Of a DNA stretch of 64,000 nt, positions 5,276-57,330 are shown piece after piece. This DNA comes from Candidatus Zixiibacteriota bacterium (GTDB lineage: Bacteria; Zixibacteria; MSB-5A5; JAABVY01). The stretch is taken from contig DSEQ01000025.1 in NCBI GenBank assembly GCA_011056555.1, positions 3,736-67,735 of the forward strand, given 5' to 3'. Position 1 is the stretch's first letter, and every line of letters starts with the position of its first letter. The notes under the pieces are model-generated. The model had not been told where the DNA came from and did not search any database. It saw only the letters and a list, made by a program, of their open reading frames with translations. The translations under genes and the position numbers were made by a program.

Positions 5276-6664
5276 TTACTGCCTATCGATGGCTGTTTTG
5301 TAAGGTGTAAATCCGGGGACTCCCTTGTGCATGGTCAGGTCGGGCTTATGGAAAGCGGGATCGTCCCTGATCGTCTTAAGGAGCCTCTCTCGTTCTTCGT
5401 CAGTGGCAAGATGTGCAATCCCCACAGCCCGTTCACCCATACTGAGGCTCTTGGGATCAAAGGCGCCATTCTCCGTCACCAGTATAACACGATCGGCTGG
5501 TATTGCAGTTGTAGTGATCCCGGCCGGGCATCTGTCAACGATTTTCGACCTGCCGTCGCGGGTGACTGATTTCATAGCGATTATGGCAACCCCTCCGGGA
5601 GAATACTGCGCCCCCCTGATAAAGTCGCTTTGGCCGCCGATCCCGCTGTAAATCCTGCGGGCATCCAGCGAATCGGCCCAGATATTACCGTGCAGGTCGA
5701 CCCCGATAGCCGAATTGATCGCCACCATATTGGGCTGCTGGGCGATCACAAAAGCATTATTGGTGTAATCCGAGGGCCGGCTTTGCACCGCACTATTGAA
5801 ATGAAGCCACTCGTAACCTTTCTGATCCTTGGCCAGGAAAATCGAGGAGACTGAGAAGTTGATCCGCGGCTTCCACTTATTGGTCACCAGACCCTTCTTC
5901 ACCAGCCGCATCATAGCATCGGCAAACAACTCCGTGTGTATCCCCAGGTGCTGGCAGTTTTTTTTGAGAATGGCCGAGGTAACCGCTTCAGGCACTTCCC
6001 CGATACCATACTGGAGGGTGGAACCGGGCGTCTTGCCGCTGCCGTCTTTGATATACAGGGCGGCAATAATTTCACCGATTCTCATGGCCTTCTTGTCGGG
6101 TTTTTGAACCGGGCTTACCGGCAGGGGATAATCCGCATCAATCAAATAGTCTATATATCGCTGAGGAATTGCGGTGCCACCTACAAAGGGCATGCGGGCG
6201 TTGCGCTCGGCTATCACCACACCGCCCTTGTCGCGGGCGGAGCGGATTGCCGCCAGGACCGCCTCCACCGTCGTACCCAGGCTGTAATTGCCGCCGTTAT
6301 CAGGTCCGGCCACCGAACACAGAACCACGTTGGGACCGTCAGGCTCGGGCGCATAGCGCGGTATCTCGGAAAGATGCATGGGATGATATTTGGCCCAGCC
6401 CTGATTGACCGCTTCCCTGGTCAGGAGGCTGTTGAATATCACCCTGTGGGTTATACTCTGACAGCGCTCTTTGGAAAACAGGGGCCTGATCCTCTCACCA
6501 AGCGGCAGCACACAGAATAAAGCGACATGCTTGATATCCATATCCCTGGCAAGCTGCTCCAGGAGGACCTGCGGAGTAGCGGCATTACCGGAAGTATAGA
6601 TCACGCTTCCGGGCTTCAGGATCTTCGGATTTATTACGCTTTCAACTCTTTTGACAATTTTCAT
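5276..6664 (-). CDS. acetyl-CoA hydrolase/transferase family protein (4-hydroxybutyrate/succinyl-CoA:acetate CoA-transferase-like)
   Basis: Full-length (462 aa) similarity pattern to the AcH/Cat1/AbfT family. Convergent with the kinase gene. Confidence 0.75.
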   Translation of the reverse strand: MKIVKRVESVINPKILKPGSVIYTSGNAATPQVLLEQLARDMDIKHVALFCVLPLGERIRPLFSKERCQSITHRVIFNSLLTREAVNQGWAKYHPMHLSEIPRYAPEPDGPNVVLCSVAGPDNGGNYSLGTTVEAVLAAIRSARDKGGVVIAERNARMPFVGGTAIPQRYIDYLIDADYPLPVSPVQKPDKKAMRIGEIIAALYIKDGSGKTPGSTLQYGIGEVPEAVTSAILKKNCQHLGIHTELFADAMMRLVKKGLVTNKWKPRINFSVSSIFLAKDQKGYEWLHFNSAVQSRPSDYTNNAFVIAQQPNMVAINSAIGVDLHGNIWADSLDARRIYSGIGGQSDFIRGAQYSPGGVAIIAMKSVTRDGRSKIVDRCPAGITTTAIPADRVILVTENGAFDPKSLSMGERAVGIAHLATDEERERLLKTIRDDPAFHKPDLTMHKGVPGFTPYKTAIDRQ

Positions 6665-33943: not shown

Positions 33944-35053
33944 CTATTCAAGCCCTGTCTTTTGCAGATCCAACTTACGGTAGCTATAGTAAGCGCTGCA
34001 TGCGCCCTCGGAGGAAACCATTGTCGCCCCAAGCGGATTTTCGGGAGTACATCTGGTGCCAAATGCCGGACAGTCGAATGGTTTCCGTGTGCCTTTCAGA
34101 ATCTCAGCGCTAATACATTCCCCGCTTTGATCCGAAATATCATCGACTTTTCCGAATTTCTCCTCGGCATCATACTGTCTGTACTTATCGCTTATTGCAA
34201 GACCGCTGGATTCTATCATCCCAAGCCCGCGCCATCTTCTATCCACGATTGTCAATACATCTTCCATAACCCTGCGCGCCTCTGCATTTCCCTCTCGTTT
34301 TACCGAACGGGAATACTGATTTTCAACCATAGCTCTTCCATCCTCAAGCTGCGCTAAAGACATATATATTCCCTGGATGATATCCAGAGGCTCGAATCCG
34401 GTGACCACAATTGGAACACTATATCCTGCAGACAATTCCTCGTACTGTTCGAAGCCGCTGACAGTGCATACATGACCGGCCGCAAGAAAAGCGTCGACTT
34501 TATTATTATCTGATGACAATATCACTTCCATGGCCGGAGGAATCAGAACCATCGCAGATAAAACCGAGAAGTTCTCGAGTCCAACCAGACCGGCCTGAAG
34601 GATTGACATCGCATTGGCAGGCGCCGTGGTCTCAAATCCGATCCCGAAAAAGACTACTTCCTTGTCAGGATTTTCCTGTGCGATTCTGAGCGCGTCAAGA
34701 GGAGAATAGACTACACGAAGATCGCCCCCGGCAGACTTAACACTAAACAGATCTCCTGCTGATCCCGGCACGCGCATCATATCCCCGAATGAGCAGAATA
34801 TCACATTTTCGCGGCCGGCGATCTCGATTGCCTTGTCGATAATGCTGAGCGGGGTGACACAGACCGGGCATCCGGGGCCGTGCAAAAGCGTAATCCTGTC
34901 GGGCAAGAGCTGATCCAGCCCGTGTCTGACAATGGCATGGGTCTGTCCCCCGCAGACCTCCATTATGTTCCAGTCTCGGCTTGTTATGCTTTTTATTTTC
35001 TCTGCAAAAGCGGCCACAGCCCGGGGATTATGATATTCGTCGATATATTTCAT
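33944..35053 (-). CDS. hypD: hydrogenase formation protein HypD
   Basis: [10 protein letters not shown]..; motifs CGGQTH and [10 protein letters not shown]. Confidence 0.9.
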
Positions 35054-35301
35054 TGCCTGTCCGCCTCTTCCATCATGCCGTCAATTTCATCGAGATATTC
35101 AAAGACTCTCTGCGCCTCATCCTCATCAACCATGCTGATAGCAAAACCGGCATGCACAATCACGTAGTCACCAATATTAGCATCCGGTACAAGTGACAGG
35201 TTTATTTGCTTGATAACCCCGCCGAAATTGACACGGCCGGTGTGCATCAAAGAATCGTCTCTTTCAATGCCGATAATCTTTCCCGGTATGGCCAGACACA
35301 T
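35050..35301 (-). CDS. hypC: hydrogenase assembly chaperone HypC/HupF
   Basis: [10 protein letters not shown]-terminus; 83 aa; ATGA overlap with hypD. Confidence 0.85.
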
Positions 35302-50279: not shown

Positions 50280-50948
50280 CTAAGCGTTCTTCTTTCGTGA
50301 GACCTGCTCGCGCAGCCAGTCACACCAGAGATTAAGGTTGTCTCCTGTGCGGCAGGAAATGCGCATGATATGCAGGCTGCCATTGATCTGCCGGGCATTC
50401 TTTTCAGCTTTATCGATATCGAAATCGGATAATCCCAGAAGATCGATCTTGTTTATCACCAGGGCTGATGACTTTCGAAACATGGCCGGGTACTTGAGCG
50501 GTTTATCATCCCCCTCGGTGGTACTGATCAGAACCACTTTCATATCCTCTCCCAGATCAAACCCGGATGGACATACCAGATTGCCCACATTTTCTATGAA
50601 AAGCAGATCGAGAGAATCGGTATCTATCTTCTCTAAGGCTTTGCCCAGCATGCGCGCATCCAGATGGCAGGCGCCCCCGGTTATAATCGGGCGGACAATT
50701 TTTCCGCCCGCACGCTCGAGCCTTATGGCGTCGTTCTCGGTCTGGACATCTCCTGCGATCAGGCCAATCCTGAATTCATCTTTCAAAAGCGAAAGCGTTT
50801 TTTCCAGCAGGCTTGTTTTGCCTGATCCCGGGGAGCTCACAAGGTTTAATGCCAATATTTTTCTTGCTCCCAGATCTTTTCTTATCTGAGCCGCCAGCTT
50901 ATCATTTTCAGACAGCACTTTTTCTTCTACCTGCACTCTCTCAGCCAT
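50280..50948 (-). CDS. hypB: hydrogenase nickel incorporation GTPase HypB
   Basis: GSGKT P-loop, CH motif, G-domain; 222 aa. Confidence 0.9.
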   Translation of the reverse strand: MAERVQVEEKVLSENDKLAAQIRKDLGARKILALNLVSSPGSGKTSLLEKTLSLLKDEFRIGLIAGDVQTENDAIRLERAGGKIVRPIITGGACHLDARMLGKALEKIDTDSLDLLFIENVGNLVCPSGFDLGEDMKVVLISTTEGDDKPLKYPAMFRKSSALVINKIDLLGLSDFDIDKAEKNARQINGSLHIMRISCRTGDNLNLWCDWLREQVSRKKNA

Positions 50949-50969
50949 GTTTTCCTCAATACTTCAATG

Positions 50970-51311
50970 CTACTCAAAAGTCAGATGTGTAATTATCAGT
51001 TCCTCACCCTTGCGGACTTCCACTTCGTAAGATCCGCACCCGGGACAGATAAAAACAAATTCATCAATTATAAACTCTCTGCCGCATGACCGGCAAACAG
51101 CCTCGATCGAAACAGTCTCGATTTTCAACTCTGTCCCCGAAAGCTCCGTTTCTTTCTTCAACATATCAAAGGCAAAGCGCAGCGATTCCGGGTCGATACA
51201 ACTCAATTTTCCGACTTTGACTCCGATCTCTTTTAAGACGTTGAAATTACGGCTCTGCATCTCCTGTTGGGAAAAACTGATTATCTCCCGGGCCACTCTC
51301 ATTTCATGCAC
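50970..51311 (-). CDS. hypA: hydrogenase nickel insertion protein HypA (probable GTG start giving MHEM...)
   Basis: MHE N-terminus and two CxxC pairs (CRSCG, CPGCG). Confidence 0.8.
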   Translation of the reverse strand: MHEMRVAREIISFSQQEMQSRNFNVLKEIGVKVGKLSCIDPESLRFAFDMLKKETELSGTELKIETVSIEAVCRSCGREFIIDEFVFICPGCGSYEVEVRKGEELIITHLTFE

Positions 51312-51434
51312 GCTGATATCCCGCTTGCAGCTTTTTATCTCCAAGCTACCGACGGGTAGGATATTGTCAAATGAAAAAATGTAATGACAGAATTATAAAT
51401 ATATCAGCCCGAAAACAGGAGGTCTGGAATGTTT

Positions 51435-52436
51435 TTAAGATGTCTTAATTTCATGGCACTTATCCGCGAGGGCGGTCAATTCCTCGTATCCCCATATGCC
51501 ACGGTCGTTAAGCAGTTTTGTCAGGTGTTTTGGAAGCGCTTCTTCGCCATTATGTGCTCCGGCTACAGCCCCGGTCATGGCACCCGTGGTATCTACATCC
51601 CCGCCAATAGAAACTGCGGTCGAAATCGCATCCCAATAGCTGTCCTTATAGCGCAAAAAGCTGTAAAGGCTCCAGAGCACGCTGCTTATCACGAAAGGTG
51701 ATATCCCCGGCCATCCATCAACATAATCCGGGGATTTACCGGCACGGCTAATAGGAGCAAGCGCCTTGTGCGGAGGCAGAAGTATCCAGTCTTTGAGCGC
51801 CAGAGTCAACTTCGAAAATTCGTCATCATAATAGGCCATCCACTTCGCGATATTCTCGATAAAAGCGTCAGTGTCTTCAGCCTGCCCGGTAAGAGCCATA
51901 GCTGTGGCCCCGGCAATGGCGACTGATCCCGCCGAACAGCGCGTATCCTTATGCGTTATCCAGCCCTGGGTATGGGCGACTTTTATCATTTCTTCGGCAT
52001 CATCATAATGGAACATCCCTACCGGTGCTGCGCGCATCGCTGTTCCGTTGCCGGCCGAGGGCGGCGGTTCTCCCGACCTCTTCCAGCTCACTCCTCTGGC
52101 GAGATTCCTTGCCGCTTTGGCCGTGGCCAGGCCCTGCCCTACGATACGGTTTTCACGGAAAATCGCCTCGATTCTCTCAGCATAATCTTTGGGATCAAAA
52201 CCGCCTTTTTCGATCATGCTCTCGAGCAGTTCACGGGCCAGCTGAGAATCGTCGGTATATTGCCCGGACCATTCAATCCGGTTCGGCTCAAAACCGTCAA
52301 ACCAATGCTTGGCCTTATTAAAAATGAAGCTGCTGCAGTCATTTTCATCACGGCCTTCAATCGGAAATCCAAGCGCATCGCCAAGGCACTGGCCGAGAAG
52401 ACATCCCCTGAACTTTGTTTTAGATGGTTTTAACAT
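51435..52436 (-). CDS. ADP-ribosylglycohydrolase family protein
   Basis: N-terminal GCLLGQCLGDALG and C-terminal DTD/GG metal-binding motifs of the ARH/DraG family. Confidence 0.8.
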   Translation of the reverse strand: MLKPSKTKFRGCLLGQCLGDALGFPIEGRDENDCSSFIFNKAKHWFDGFEPNRIEWSGQYTDDSQLARELLESMIEKGGFDPKDYAERIEAIFRENRIVGQGLATAKAARNLARGVSWKRSGEPPPSAGNGTAMRAAPVGMFHYDDAEEMIKVAHTQGWITHKDTRCSAGSVAIAGATAMALTGQAEDTDAFIENIAKWMAYYDDEFSKLTLALKDWILLPPHKALAPISRAGKSPDYVDGWPGISPFVISSVLWSLYSFLRYKDSYWDAISTAVSIGGDVDTTGAMTGAVAGAHNGEEALPKHLTKLLNDRGIWGYEELTALADKCHEIKTS

Positions 52437-52757
52437 ATAATCTCAGGATATATTAACACATGGATGCAGATAAAAAAAGCAATTTCTGCGACGATTTGAT
52501 TAGAAAGATCGCTTTCTCAAACAGCCCGGCTTACGGCTTTTAAGTTTTTTTTATTTTCTCAACTTTTTTCGTTATTCCTCAGCATTTTGAAGGCCCTTAC
52601 TGCATGAACAAAATTAATTTTATTCTTGTCTAATTTGAATGATTAATATATACTACAACAGGTTAGACATATTTTGAGATTGCGGAAAAAGGAGGTTTTG
52701 GAGTGTCAACAGGGCCGGAAACCCAATTAAAAAAAGTTGAAAAATTGTAAATTTAGT

Positions 52758-52785
52758 GTTGACAAGTGGTAAATATATAGTACAT
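52758..52785 (+). promoter_or_regulatory. sigma70-type promoter of small RNA 1 (TTGACA-N16-TACATT)
   Basis: Read directly. Paralogous to the promoter at 53237. Confidence 0.45.
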
Positions 52786-52791
52786 TTATGT

Positions 52792-52866
52792 TACCCCTTT
52801 CATTTAAACCTACCCTATAAGATGTGGTGTCTATGGACCGGCTCCTGCTAGCCGGTCTTTTATTTA
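52792..52866 (+). ncRNA. candidate small RNA, copy 1 (~75 nt) with its own promoter and an intrinsic terminator (gaccggc-N8-gccggtc + U-run)
   Basis: About 80% identical to copy 2 from the predicted TSS through the terminator. Shared blocks AAACCUACC and UGUGGUGUCUA. Confidence 0.5.
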
Positions 52867-53236
52867 TTTAAATATGAAAGTTGTGCAAAAAGAAATTCCT
52901 CTTATGCATCGCAGCAGTTTTCTTGCGCTATAAACGACAATTATCAGAAAAATTACACTACTGTTCGTCGACCGAGATCAGCCAGCATCAAAAATTTGAT
53001 CGGAACTATATAAATTCATCCCATCAAAGTCTTCCCCGTTTTAATCTTTAATTCCGAGATAGACATTTCATTCATTCAGGGTGCGATTCATCCTTGTTTT
53101 TTTGCATTTTGGGCATTAAATAGGATCCGGATACTTAAATCTCAAAGAACTCCGGACATTTAAGTTGATACGGACTATACTTTTAGAAATATTTCGCGGA
53201 TTAATGAAATTTTTTGATGATTCCGGTTCAAAAACA

Positions 53237-53265
53237 TTGACATCATGAATCCACATAATTATATT
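53237..53265 (+). promoter_or_regulatory. sigma70-type promoter of small RNA 2 (TTGACA-N17-TATATT)
   Basis: Near-consensus -35/-10 with 17-nt spacing. Confidence 0.55.
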
Positions 53266-53270
53266 CAGAT

Positions 53271-53342
53271 ACCCTTTTCGTTAAACCTACCTTAAAATTG
53301 TGGTGTCTAGGACCGGTTCCTACCTGCCGGTCCGCTTTTTTT
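53271..53342 (+). ncRNA. candidate small RNA, copy 2 (~72 nt) ending in terminator ggaccgg-N10-ccggtcc + U7
   Basis: Paralog of copy 1. Strong terminator. No ORF. Confidence 0.55.
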
Positions 53343-53435
53343 ATAATTCCAATAATGGAAACCAGTGAATTTAAACTTGTTGAATGAACTCGACTTTTGT
53401 ATCCTGTTTCTACTTATTTTATTTGGTGCCGGATA

Positions 53436-54878
53436 ATGGGTAATATGAAATGCTTCTGGAAGATATTTGTTGCGCTTTTGGCTTTGCTTTTAGTGTCGTG
53501 CGGTGGTCATGACAGATCCTCGGACGTCAAAGAAGTAAACCTGGATCTTGCTGCGATCAAAAAAAGCGGATCTCTGAGGGCTATAACCACCTATGGCGCC
53601 ACCAGCTACTTCATATATCGCGGGCGGCCGATGGGGTATGAATATGAGCTCTTGACACGTCTGGCCGAGCATCTCAATCTCAATCTGGAAATAGTGATTG
53701 CCAAAAATCTCGACAGCCTGATAAGCATGCTGAAAAAGGGCGATGGCGATATCATAGCTCATGGCCTGGCAATAACCCGGCAGAGAAAAGAACGGGTAGC
53801 ATTCGCCACCCCTCACACCGTCACCCGTCAGGTTCTGGTGCAGAGGCTGCCCGAAAACTGGCGCGATATGAAGCTGCACGAGATAGAAGACGCCCTGATC
53901 CGCAATCCGATAGATTTGATCGGCAAAAAAGTGCACGTGCGCAGAAATACGTCCTATTACCAGCGCCTTATTAATCTTTCCGAGGAGATAGGGGACGAAA
54001 TCGATATCGAACTTGCCCCGGGCGATCTTGCCACCGAGGATTTGATAGCAATGGTGGCTGAAGGGGAGATCGATTATACTGTCGCTGATCAATATATAGC
54101 GGCTATAAACAAGACCTATTATCCCGACCTCGATATAAAAACCGTCATAAGTTTTCCTCAGCGCATAGCCTGGGCTATCCGTAAATCCTCGCCGCAGTTA
54201 CTGGAAGCGGTAAATGACTGGATTTACGAAATGAAGAAGGGGCTGGATTATCATGTTTTATATAACAAATATTTCAAGAACACAAAGGCCTTCAAACGGC
54301 GTAAAGAATTCTCTTCATACCCCGGGGGCAGGATTTCGGCCTATGATGATCAGATCAAGAAGCATGCCGCTATGCTTAATTGGGACTGGAGCCTGCTGGC
54401 TTCCATGATTTATCAGGAATCGAGATTCGATCCCGAGACGGAATCATGGGCTGGTGCAAAAGGCCTGATGCAGCTCATGCCTGCCATGACCGAGCGATTC
54501 GGGTTAGAGGACCCATCCGATCCGCAAGAAAACATTGAAGCCGGTACCAGGTATCTTCTCTACCTAAAGGAGCTGTGGGGAATAATCCCGGACAGTCTGG
54601 AACGCATAAAGTTCATCCTGGCCTCATATAATGTGGGCGAAAATCATGTCAGTGACGCCCGGCGGCTGGCCGATAAATATGGCGCCGACCCTGATCTCTG
54701 GGAAGGAAATGTCGCCAAATACCTGCGCCTGAAATCGAAGAAAAAATATTATAACGATGCAGTGGTAAAATACGGTTACTGCCGAGGCGATGAGCCGTAC
54801 AAATATGTCAAGGAGATATTTGAAAGATACGAGCACTACCGCAGGGTGATTGAGTTTAATTCAAAGCCGGGGACTTAG
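53436..54878 (+). CDS. mltF: membrane-bound lytic murein transglycosylase F-like lipoprotein (SBP_bac_3 domain + SLT domain)
   Basis: Lipobox LLVSCGG; periplasmic binding domain; SLT catalytic region (ESRFDPETESWAGAKGLMQLMP). Confidence 0.8.
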   Translation: MGNMKCFWKIFVALLALLLVSCGGHDRSSDVKEVNLDLAAIKKSGSLRAITTYGATSYFIYRGRPMGYEYELLTRLAEHLNLNLEIVIAKNLDSLISMLKKGDGDIIAHGLAITRQRKERVAFATPHTVTRQVLVQRLPENWRDMKLHEIEDALIRNPIDLIGKKVHVRRNTSYYQRLINLSEEIGDEIDIELAPGDLATEDLIAMVAEGEIDYTVADQYIAAINKTYYPDLDIKTVISFPQRIAWAIRKSSPQLLEAVNDWIYEMKKGLDYHVLYNKYFKNTKAFKRRKEFSSYPGGRISAYDDQIKKHAAMLNWDWSLLASMIYQESRFDPETESWAGAKGLMQLMPAMTERFGLEDPSDPQENIEAGTRYLLYLKELWGIIPDSLERIKFILASYNVGENHVSDARRLADKYGADPDLWEGNVAKYLRLKSKKKYYNDAVVKYGYCRGDEPYKYVKEIFERYEHYRRVIEFNSKPGT

Positions 54879-55474
54879 TTTCTTTTCTTGCCGAATTTCG
54901 AAAGGTAGTCAACCACGCCGTCAGTGGTCGGTTTCATGCCTTGCCTGCCTTCTTCCCAGTTGGCCGGACAGACATTGCCGCTCTTCTCATGAAACCTGAG
55001 GGCATCAACCATGCGAAGCGCTTCCGGGATGCTCCGTCCGAGCGCATTGTCATTGACTACACAATGGCGAATGATACCTTCCTTATCTATCAGGAACAGT
55101 CCCCTGAGGGCGGTTCCATCGCTCAGAAGCACGCCGTAGTCCCGGGCGATGTTTTTTTTGAGGTCGGACACCAGGGGATAGCGAATCTGACCTATACCGC
55201 CCTGATCGACCGCGGTCTTTTTCCAGGCCAGGTGGGTATACTCGGAATCCACTGAGACACCTACCACCTCGGTCTCCCTCTCCCTGAATTTATCCAGAGC
55301 CTCTTCGAAAGCCAAAATCTCCGAGGGGCAGACGAAAGTGAAGTCAAGCGGATAAAAGAACAGTATTACATACATGCCGCGCATGGATGAGAGATTGAAT
55401 CTGGCAAAGCTGTTATCGCCCATGACAGCGGTGGCTATGAAATCGGGGGCCTCTTTGGTCACCAAGAATGACAT
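54875..55474 (-). CDS. peroxiredoxin (typical 2-Cys Prx, AhpC/TSA family)
   Basis: Peroxidatic Cys motif FTFVCPSEI and a resolving Cys near the C-terminus (VCPANW). Confidence 0.9.
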   Translation of the reverse strand: MSFLVTKEAPDFIATAVMGDNSFARFNLSSMRGMYVILFFYPLDFTFVCPSEILAFEEALDKFRERETEVVGVSVDSEYTHLAWKKTAVDQGGIGQIRYPLVSDLKKNIARDYGVLLSDGTALRGLFLIDKEGIIRHCVVNDNALGRSIPEALRMVDALRFHEKSGNVCPANWEEGRQGMKPTTDGVVDYLSKFGKKRN

Positions 55475-55493
55475 TTAAATATCCTGTCTATGC

Positions 55494-55524
55494 AAATCCA
55501 TGCCGGTCATCCCGGCATGGATTT
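55494..55524. other. 13-bp perfect stem-loop (aaatccatgccgg-tcatc-ccggcatggattt) between the small ORF and prx
   Basis: Read directly. No U-run, so it is probably an intercistronic RNA structure rather than a terminator. Confidence 0.4.
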
Positions 55525-55570
55525 ATTTCCAGATTAAATTCATGACGCTATCCTGCGCCCTCTCAGATCT

Positions 55571-55744
55571 TTAGTCGTTCTGAGGATTGGCGGATTCGTC
55601 GACGCAGATCATCTTAAGCTGATCTTCATTACCCTGATCAATATGCTTCAGGGAGTCGACCGGGCAAAGGTAAGTATTGCCTGAATCGGCCTTGATCCAC
55701 TTTACGCTCAATTCTTTCTTGAACTCTTTCATCTCTTCTGTCAT
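55571..55744 (-). CDS. unlisted 57-aa small protein (MTEEMKEFKKELSVKWIKADSGNTYLCPVDSLKHIDQGNEDQLKMICVDESANPQND) between trx and prx
   Basis: ATG preceded by RBS AAGGAG at 8-nt spacing. Coding-like composition. Co-oriented inside the trx-prx oxidative-stress operon. Confidence 0.5.
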   Translation of the reverse strand: MTEEMKEFKKELSVKWIKADSGNTYLCPVDSLKHIDQGNEDQLKMICVDESANPQND

Positions 55745-55839
55745 GCCATTTCTCCTTTTTCTAATTATTGATTCTTCGCAGCATTGCGAATATTTTTAAA
55801 ATAGATAAACCTCTTTAATTTTTAGATGGTTCCCGGCAA

Positions 55840-56211
55840 TTATTCCATTTCTTCCTGATTCTCGATATGGGCCCGCACCTCATCCATATCCACCCCCATA
55901 GCCTGATTAACCACACCCTCCAGACCGGACTCATCCAGATAACCGGGCTGCATGAAAAGCATAATCTCATCCCTGAAGAGAATTAACGTGGGGATATGCT
56001 CCACCCCCAGTTTGTCGGTTGCCTCCTTCTGCTCCTGAGTATTGAGCTTTGCGAAGGTATATTCAGGAAATTTCTCCGCCACTTTTTCAAAAACCGGTTG
56101 AAATTCCTTACAGGCTCCACACCAGGGGGCCCAGCAGTCAATCACAAGGATTTCTGAATTAGAAAGCAGCTCATTGAAATTTTCTTTAGTCAGATTAATC
56201 AGGTTCATCAT
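55840..56211 (-). CDS. trx: thioredoxin (active site WCGAC)
   Basis: Thioredoxin fold motif VIDCWAPWCGACKEFQP; 123 aa. Confidence 0.85.
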   Translation of the reverse strand: MMNLINLTKENFNELLSNSEILVIDCWAPWCGACKEFQPVFEKVAEKFPEYTFAKLNTQEQKEATDKLGVEHIPTLILFRDEIMLFMQPGYLDESGLEGVVNQAMGVDMDEVRAHIENQEEME

Positions 56212-56306
56212 ATCCCTTCTAATGTACTAGCTCGGTAACCCGGATAATACCGCATTGGTTCCGGCGAAAAGAAAATAAAAATAGAAAAAAACTCTTGACA
56301 AACAGG

Positions 56307-56316
56307 AGTAATTACT
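56307..56316. promoter_or_regulatory. perfect palindrome AGTAATTACT inside the divergent trx/perR promoter region (candidate PerR/Fur-type box), adjacent to TTGACA at 56295
   Basis: Read directly. AT-rich dyad resembling PerR-box half-sites (TTATAAT-N-ATTATAA-like). Confidence 0.35.
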
Positions 56317-56336
56317 AAATAGTAGCTGTTGGCAAA

Positions 56337-56816
56337 ATGGCAGAAGATCAACTACAATCATTTTTAAATCGCTGCCGGGAGCATGGGCTCAAGATCACTC
56401 CCCAGCGCACGGCCATATATGAAATGCTCTGCGGTTCGCGGAAGCATCCCACGGCCGAGCATATATATGCGGAAATCAGGAATAGCTATCCGAATATCTC
56501 ATTTGATACTGTTAATCGAACCCTGAAAACATTCGCAGAGATCGGCCTGACCGGCGTAGTCGAGGGTCACGGCGGGCCGCGCCGTTACGATCCCAACCTT
56601 GAGAGCCACCATCATATCCATTGTGTCCGATGCCGTGAGATATTTGATTTTCAGAGCGACGAGCTGGATAACCTGGAAATCCCGCCGGAAATCAAACAAG
56701 AATATAGAATTTTAAACAAGAGAGTTGTACTGAATGCGGTATGCAGGAGATGCCGCAGAAGGAGCCATATCAAAAAGCAGAGGCAGAAAAAAGGAGCAAG
56801 CAATGAGCAAGACTGA
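56337..56816 (+). CDS. perR: Fur-family transcriptional regulator (PerR-like)
   Basis: Winged-helix N-terminus; HHHIHC and CxxC (CVRCREI, CRRC) metal sites. Its 3' end overlaps the rubrerythrin start by 14 nt. Confidence 0.8.
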   Translation: MAEDQLQSFLNRCREHGLKITPQRTAIYEMLCGSRKHPTAEHIYAEIRNSYPNISFDTVNRTLKTFAEIGLTGVVEGHGGPRRYDPNLESHHHIHCVRCREIFDFQSDELDNLEIPPEIKQEYRILNKRVVLNAVCRRCRRRSHIKKQRQKKGASNEQD

Positions 56817-57330
56817 TGAAAACCTGAAAGCCGCTTTTGCGGGAGAATCCCAGGCCCGCAACAAATACACCTTTTTTGCCCAGGTGGCCAGGAAAGAGGG
56901 CCTGCATTACATCGCCAAGATCTTTGAGGAAACCGCCGAGAACGAAAAGCGTCACGCCAAGGATGAATTTGTGCTGTTGGATGGTCTCGGCGATACGGCG
57001 GCCAATCTGGATGAGGCCATCAACGGCGAGCAGTACGAAACCATCACCATGTATCCCGAGTTCGCTGAACAGGCCAAGGAAGACGGCAATATGGCGGCCG
57101 CCCGGCTTTTTATGCAGATTGCCAAAGTGGAAGCGCATCATCGCGACCGCTACCGGAAATTACTGGAAAGAGTAAAAAACGGTACCGTCTATAAGCGTGA
57201 TGAGCCGATCAAATGGAAATGCAGTGTCTGCGGTTATATCCATGAAGGCACCCAGCCTCCCGGAAAATGCCCCTGCTGCCAGCATCCCAAAGAATATTAC
57301 GAACCGGCGGACATGGAAACCGATATTTAG
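56803..57330 (+). CDS. rbr: rubrerythrin
   Basis: Di-iron ferritin-like EX(n)H motifs plus a C-terminal rubredoxin-like CSVCG...CPCC. Start at MSKTDENLKAAF. Confidence 0.9.
   Translation: MSKTDENLKAAFAGESQARNKYTFFAQVARKEGLHYIAKIFEETAENEKRHAKDEFVLLDGLGDTAANLDEAINGEQYETITMYPEFAEQAKEDGNMAAARLFMQIAKVEAHHRDRYRKLLERVKNGTVYKRDEPIKWKCSVCGYIHEGTQPPGKCPCCQHPKEYYEPADMETDI

Follow-up and report, generated by a model that had tools for sequence, protein, structure and literature searches.

Among the sibling small RNAs (sRNAs) of bacteria, the tandem pairs OmrA/OmrB, PrrF1/PrrF2, and AbcR1/2 are organized with shared ends and divergent middles, OmrA and OmrB being near-identical only at both ends, and the csRNAs are likewise listed among the siblings (PMC4211561). 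Here we analyzed a stretch of 64,000 nucleotides from a Candidatus Zixiibacteriota bacterium (contig DSEQ01000025.1; this whole 64-kb stretch is hereafter called the window), in which two RNA genes, copy 1 (c1) and copy 2 (c2), lie on the plus strand within a 1-kb gap between an ADP-ribosylglycohydrolase gene and mltF. We read both, with rather more confidence than doubt, as stand-alone and probably trans-acting sibling sRNAs of ~70 nt from a family confined to one uncultured clade with Zixibacteria or Ignavibacteria labels. As in a sibling family in the sense of PMC4211561, at least two homologous and, by prediction, separately transcribed sRNA genes lie in one genome.

The two genes are built alike. 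The c1 RNA (positions 52793 to 52865, plus strand, ~73 nt) consists of a predicted single-stranded, C/U-rich 5' tail, a weak hairpin termed P1, a linker, and a terminator with a U-tract; the c2 RNA (53271 to 53343, plus strand, ~73 nt) has the same architecture, with P1 at 53288 to 53305. The c1 promoter (52759 to 52786, TTGACA-16-TACATT) scores 10/12 and is preceded by an AT-rich stretch, and the c2 promoter (53237 to 53265, TTGACA-17-TATATT) scores 11/12, with a spacer (TCATG..TCCACA) that is unusually well kept. In a promoter scan, the top two sigma70-type sites of the region are those located directly 5' of c1 and c2. The intrinsic terminator hairpin of c1 (52835 to 52858) has 9 bp and is followed by UUUUAUUUAUUU, and that of c2 (53310 to 53333) has 8 bp and is followed by GCUUUUUUU. 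Terminator-like sites number three in the region, two of them being the 3' ends of c1 and c2 with their U-runs, where shuffled sequences average 1.1; the U-tracts comprise 4 to 9 U, and that of c1 is broken by an A. Transcription that starts at the A of ACCC(C) and ends at the intrinsic terminator, separately for each gene, is strongly indicated by these sequence signals.

Pairwise alignment of c1 and c2 gives a mean column identity of 81% with the promoters counted in, and 53 of 63 aligned positions of the RNA bodies match, with three gaps, so that the bodies are about 80 to 84% identical. The pattern TTAAACCTACC-N3-10-TGTGGTGTCTA is found at two places in the window and was never obtained in 100 shuffled sequences. 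A covariance model run over the 64 kb with filters off found only c1 and c2, at 93 bits each, and no further copy was detected in the window by nhmmer or by this model. The original prediction, made from the letters alone, had proposed at these positions two small-RNA genes about 80% alike, each with its own sigma70 promoter and terminator, and it is borne out by the promoter and terminator scan and the alignment. Its placement of the pair next to mltF (start at 53436 or 53445, plus strand) also stands, but the proposed adjacency to hypBA does not: the immediate left neighbor is the ADP-ribosylglycohydrolase gene (51435 to 52436, minus strand), and hypA and hypB lie beyond it.

Orthologs of c1, c2, or both are present in at least seven other assemblies labeled Zixibacteria or Ignavibacteria. 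These loci were recovered through pattern scans of genome collections plus look-ups of MltF homologs; the scan pattern was too loose, 117 of the 119 loci listed being chance matches, and the reported distribution is a lower bound. Both c1 and c2 occur in L062 (CAZBZV01, labeled Ignavibacteria), in L121 and L127 (both GCA_012974705.1), and in L128 (GCA_011774175.1); a c1-type copy occurs in L064 (WJIM01, Zixibacteria) and in L120 (a JGI contig), c2 in L132 (JGI), and c2 together with a truncated c1 in L133 (ENA). The window MltF is 100% identical to the protein of a metagenome-assembled genome (MAG) labeled Zixibacteria, and the taxonomic labels of the nearest MAGs conflict (Zixibacteria in the NCBI names versus Ignavibacteria for CAZBZV01). 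Relatives with an MltF of ≤67% identity (L129, L130, L131, L134, and L135) have no copy up to 10 kb from mltF, or over a shorter distance at contig ends, and those with a PD40 protein of ≤50% identity (L137 to L140) gave terminator-like chance matches only and no RNA.

Conservation of the two RNAs stands far above that of their surroundings. L062 is the most distant syntenic relative, with 76% amino-acid identity in MltF and 50% identity at the third-codon positions of mltF, and its c1 and c2 bodies are each identical to those of the window at 66 of 66 positions, terminator loops included. The c1 body matches that of the window at 66/66 positions in L127, 60/64 in L064, and 61/65 in L120, and the c2 body at 65/65 positions, plus one single-base indel, in L127, L133, and L132. 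Compared with L121, the window shows identities of 99 to 100% in the RNA bodies and 91 to 94% in the promoters (94% for the c2 promoter), with other intergenic blocks ranging from 45% to 89% and unconserved stretches from 45 to 60%. All copies retain both the -35 and the -10 hexamer, and the gap from the -10 hexamer to ACCC is 5 to 6 nt throughout. In L127, L062, L064, and L120, the c1 hexamers and the 6-nt distance from -10 to ACCC are retained while the spacer sequence varies, which points to a selected promoter with a fixed start; in contrast to the drifting c1 spacer, that of c2 is mostly kept in an alignment of five orthologs. The c1 terminator stem is retained in L064 and L120, where the loops have changed and U.G or C:G variants occur. 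Both RNAs are under very strong purifying selection, and because the c1 and c2 types are each separately conserved, the duplication is older than the divergence of these genomes and both copies have been maintained. Each gene thus presents a short non-coding stretch that is enclosed by its own predicted promoter and terminator and conserved above background, as stand-alone sRNA genes do. The elements are present in related genomes, whose lack of them had been named in advance as an argument against the prediction, and c1 and c2 are almost certainly real regulatory RNAs, the regulatory role itself being read from sequence.

A third, diverged paralog, c3, lies at positions 106 to 179 of L136 (25.7 bits, E value of about 2e-4 with the covariance model). 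It is equipped with a promoter of its own (TTGACT-17-TATATT) and with a terminator of 10 bp, and it sits at a tRNA-Ala/PD40 site that was found by following the genomic context of L064. L136 comes from the same MAG as L127 (GCA_012974705.1), which carries c1 and c2 at mltF, so that at least three siblings exist in at least one genome and the two-member pair originally proposed has to be widened to a family of at least three. A C-run at the extreme 5' end, the block AAGAU.UGG.GUC.AUG, and the terminator are common to c1, c2, and c3; the block AAACCUACC, which had been singled out as conserved, is absent from c3 and cannot serve as a family hallmark. The c1-type copies occupy at least three contexts: ahead of c2 and mltF; in L062, with a convergent beta-helix gene between c1 and c2; and at the tRNA-Ala/PD40/RecN site of L064, where the copy is convergent with tRNA-Ala(GGC) and precedes a PD40 beta-propeller gene and recN. 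At L064 552 to 626 (minus strand) and L136 323 to 397 (minus strand), the sRNA copy and tRNA-Ala(GGC) converge with hairpin terminators in between. The same genomic position holds a c1-type gene in L064 but c3 in L136, which may reflect gene conversion among members of the sRNA family or their relocation.

Apart from the terminator, little structure is predicted for these RNAs. The whole-RNA fold of c1 has a z score of -2.75, which is terminator-driven, and whether folded singly or as an alignment, the RNAs yield the terminator and, beyond it, no more than one hairpin of 4 bp. This hairpin, P1 (52811 to 52829 in c1, plus strand, CUAUAAGAUGU), is predicted by RNAalifold to pair UACC with GGUG around an 11-nt loop. 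Its homolog in c3 has 6 bp and one compensatory change from A:U to G:C, a piece of evidence that comes from one informative sequence in an alignment fitted to the model; P1 is plausible but not established. The conserved blocks that had been described as single-stranded fit this picture in part, in that the 5' ~40 nt are essentially unstructured, but the blocks are partly complementary to each other (UACC/GGUG) and may form the short hairpin. When the 3' half of the terminator is removed (55 to 57 nt left), shuffled sequences fold more stably on average than the two remainders, whose minimum free energies are -6.2 and -6.6 kcal/mol (z = +1.18 and +0.80), and no anti-terminator fold appears in either c1 or c2. 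An unstructured 5' part of ~40 nt fits a pairing surface and not a riboswitch aptamer.

The RNAs match no described family. No position of the window reached the gathering score of an Rfam 15 model; at an E value of ≤10, Rfam returned for positions 52400 to 53480 only chance-level matches (eukaryotic snoRNAs and bacterial sRNA or CRISPR-repeat models) far below the gathering scores; the Rfam matches in the relatives' loci are tRNA genes only. ARAGORN found no tRNA or transfer-messenger RNA (tmRNA) in the window. The 1-kb stretch lacks a convincing open reading frame (ORF), and our literature search turned up neither an sRNA from Zixibacteria nor the sequence motif. The earlier statements that no tRNA, tmRNA, SRP, or 6S signature fits, that the RNAs contain no ORF, and that the family is apparently unrecorded all agree with these searches, and an Rfam match to a known family or cis-regulatory element, named in advance as a counterargument, did not appear.

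In the mechanism that we consider most likely, each gene would be transcribed from its near-consensus sigma70 promoter and stopped at its intrinsic terminator, yielding an RNA with an unstructured 5' part of ~40 nt that opens with a C-run, at most a 4- to 6-bp hairpin, and then the GC-rich terminator with its U-tail. The accessible 5' part, where a seed would be located, may base-pair with target mRNAs in trans; its C-rich end (ACCCCUUUC, ACCCUUUUC, and CCCCCC) could pair with G-rich sites, for example, ribosome-binding sites, and thereby alter translation or stability, and the hairpin and U-tail would act as a stability module or bind a putative chaperone. An accessible, conserved 5' part followed by a terminator hairpin and U-tail is the anatomy of classical base-pairing sRNAs, and the Rho-independent terminator with a U-tail is the feature expected of an Hfq-class 3' module. 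The differences specific to each paralog fall in the 5' tail, the P1 loop, and the linker and are each fixed among orthologs, which suggests siblings with partly different target sets or regulation. ACCCCUUUC presumably resembles the 3' end of 16S rRNA, a likeness confined to c1 that we keep as speculation.

Several observations weigh against trans-acting base pairing. Scans of both strands of the window for long duplexes found only long imperfect ones inside coding regions. When 18-nt sRNA windows were compared with ~57 translation-start regions of the window, the best energy was -17, no better than the minima of -17 to -25 given by shuffled sRNAs; a census of reverse-complement 8-mers over the 64 kb remained <2-fold over expectation, with no convincing match at a translation start. 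Covering ~2% of the genome, these target scans are uninformative rather than negative. No Hfq/LSM domain (or ProQ) was seen among the ten small window ORFs that were scanned, and a literature search on Hfq in Zixibacteria found nothing. Structural covariation is nearly absent, since the sequences hardly vary. Finally, conservation spans the entire RNA, including the terminator loop, which is beyond what simple seed pairing needs; typical base-pairing sRNAs are conserved mainly in the seed, and conservation of the whole RNA could point to a protein partner or to several partners. The main rival explanation is accordingly that the RNAs bind or sequester a protein, or act as a sponge or decoy for another RNA, with the whole sequence as the functional unit. 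The 100% identity over a 66-nt body, loop included, where synonymous sites are ~50% identical, speaks for such a role, as do the high expression suggested by near-consensus promoters with AT-rich upstream regions and the lack of a match in the target scans of the window. We nevertheless judge it unlikely: there are no repeated GGA-in-loop motifs, the GGA at the terminator base of c1 and c2 being missing in c3; in contrast to 6S, CsrB, or Y RNAs, this RNA is short and largely without structure; and the paralogs differ exactly in the single-stranded stretches, as would fit a diversified pairing specificity. It is also quite unlikely, in our estimate, that a highly expressed RNA with every nucleotide constrained, at a distance that leaves synonymous sites close to saturation, serves as a lineage-specific housekeeping or hub RNA, for instance, as a protein-bound regulator or as a decoy that imitates, with its C-rich 5' end, the anti-Shine-Dalgarno end of 16S rRNA.

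Alternatively, c2, and by extension the family, might be a cis-acting 5' leader, that is, a terminator-based attenuator or riboswitch of the downstream gene, here mltF. Each of the six genomes in which c2 was detected does have it 5' of mltF and co-oriented with that gene, and the c2 terminator ends ~100 nt before the mltF start codon. However, no anti-terminator is predicted, and without the 3' terminator half the RNAs fold worse than their shuffles; no Rfam cis-regulatory family matches; and c1 and c3 share the architecture of c2 yet precede unrelated or convergent genes. Moreover, a conserved promoter-like block that is not part of the sRNA (53376 to 53412, plus strand, TTGTTG-17-TATCCT/TATTCT) separates the c2 terminator from mltF. 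Five genomes retain it, the most distant of them with an MltF of 76% identity, and it is 86% identical to L121 where its flanks are 46 to 72% identical, so that mltF need not rely on read-through from c2. Given this intervening block and the contexts of c1 and c3, stand-alone trans-acting RNAs are preferred, and we regard a leader function as very unlikely. Least probable of all, and in our view highly improbable, is that these stretches are not functional RNAs but DNA-level elements (protein-binding sites or remnants of small mobile repeats) or encode a tiny peptide. The hexamer TGTCTA recurs in both RNAs and in an inverted pair around 52627 and 52665, and c1 contains a frame of 9 codons (ATG-TGG-TGT-CTA-TGG-ACC-GGC-TCC-TGC-TAG). 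Yet the unbroken 66-nt identity is bounded by the promoter +1 and the terminator and differs from the trace that an operator or repeat would leave, and only two copies exist in the 64 kb, without terminal inverted repeats or target-site duplications. A mobile or phage origin was rejected, as blastn against plasmid and phage collections gave no match and five pattern matches in viral contigs were limited to the pattern itself and reflect chance. The peptide was likewise rejected: no ribosome-binding site precedes the frame, which ends after 4 codons in L064 and is shifted in c2, so that no conserved small ORF is left inside the RNAs.

Other elements were observed around the locus. Upstream of c1, positions 52617 to 52700 form a conserved non-coding island that is 82% identical to L121 against a background of 45 to 60%. 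It contains a promoter-like TTGTCT-17-TATACT between the inverted repeats TGTCTAA (~52627) and TTAGACA (~52665), with a -10 region like that of the c1 promoter (TGATTAATATATACTACA versus TGGTAAATATATAGTACA); the core TAyAACAssTTAGACAyA is also found in L062, and a perfect AAGGAGG lies downstream with no conserved ORF. The island may encode a further small transcript or act as an operator. At 52474 to 52498, L121 and L062 share with the window the block AAAAAAGCAATTTCTGCGACG, which lies ~40 nt upstream of the start of the minus-strand ADP-ribosylglycohydrolase/hypA genes and is probably a promoter or leader element of their operon. Between c1 and c2, ~170 nt of the window (52961 to 53130) are absent from L121 and L127, and probably also from L133, which has the same short c1-c2 spacing as L127; this insert carries a terminator-like hairpin (53078 to 53094) and overlaps a non-conserved 56-codon ORF with a TTG start (52881 to 53051). 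In L062, a 597-amino-acid beta-helix/dockerin gene is inserted between c1 and c2. The same locus encodes a 179-residue ORF (5850 to 6389, plus strand) whose first ~30 residues match the start of the ADP-ribosylglycohydrolase and whose remainder matches HypA. L062 lacks the glycohydrolase gene that the window has, and this ORF appears to be what a deletion left behind. The hydrogenase maturation genes hypC, hypA, and hypB are found in the window (35050 to 35301; 50280 to 51344).

Downstream of mltF, positions 54875 to 57330 comprise an oxidative-stress cluster that is syntenic in L127, L128, and L132 and consists of ahpC, thioredoxin, a Fur-family regulator (56337 to 56816), and rubrerythrin, together with a conserved 57-amino-acid ORF without a Pfam match (55571 to 55744, minus strand). 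A perfect palindrome, AGTAATTACT, is located at 56307 to 56316 within the regulator's own TTGACA promoter, and a perfect 13-bp inverted repeat, AAATCCATGCCGG-TCATC-CCGGCATGGATTT, lies at 55494 to 55525 between the 57-amino-acid ORF and ahpC and is also present in L121. The sRNA promoters were inspected for an operator that they might share with the Fur-family/rubrerythrin promoter nearby; the c2 motif ATAATTAT is not kept in L062 or L132, and no link emerged.

We found no regulatory RNA described for Zixibacteria, a phylum known from metagenomes only. Although an sRNA family by itself reveals no new mechanism, one with clear predicted promoters and terminators and at least three paralogs provides an entry point for metatranscriptome mapping, for comparative target prediction, and for the question of which RNA chaperones the lineage employs. 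The family is suitable for Rfam, a covariance model (R1) having been built, and its extreme conservation makes it a possible clade marker.

Compared with known systems, the proposed pairing mode resembles that of RsaE/RoxS and the streptococcal csRNAs, which are short, terminator-ended RNAs that use an accessible C/U-rich stretch to pair with G-rich Shine-Dalgarno regions and of which several paralogs may occur in one genome. In RsaE/RoxS the C-runs are located in hairpin loops; the c1/c2 family has its C-run at the extreme 5' end (ACCCCUUUC) and shares no homology with them, and pairing with ribosome-binding sites would here be an analogy, with no convincing translation initiation region in the window. 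PrrF1/PrrF2 of Pseudomonas aeruginosa resemble c1 and c2 as tandem duplicates with a short spacer, and in other species siblings occupy distal sites, as c3 does; the two are 95% identical and Fur-controlled, where c1 and c2 are about 80 to 84% identical and by inspection show no conserved Fur- or PerR-type box in their promoters. Read-through of the first terminator at that locus produces the longer RNA PrrH (PMC4211561), and read-through of c1 is possible in principle. OmrA/OmrB of Enterobacteriaceae belong to another phylum and have no sequence similarity to c1 and c2, which have no Rfam match and are conserved over the whole RNA instead of at the ends only. In organization, however, the two pairs are alike: in both, adjacent same-strand genes of ~70 to 90 nt each have their own (in our case predicted) promoter and intrinsic terminator, and the 5' end and terminator are near-identical between siblings with a diverged middle. 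The copy number and arrangement of OmrA/OmrB vary, one pair being split by an insertion (PMC4211561), comparable to the gene inserted in L062 and to the insert found only in the window.

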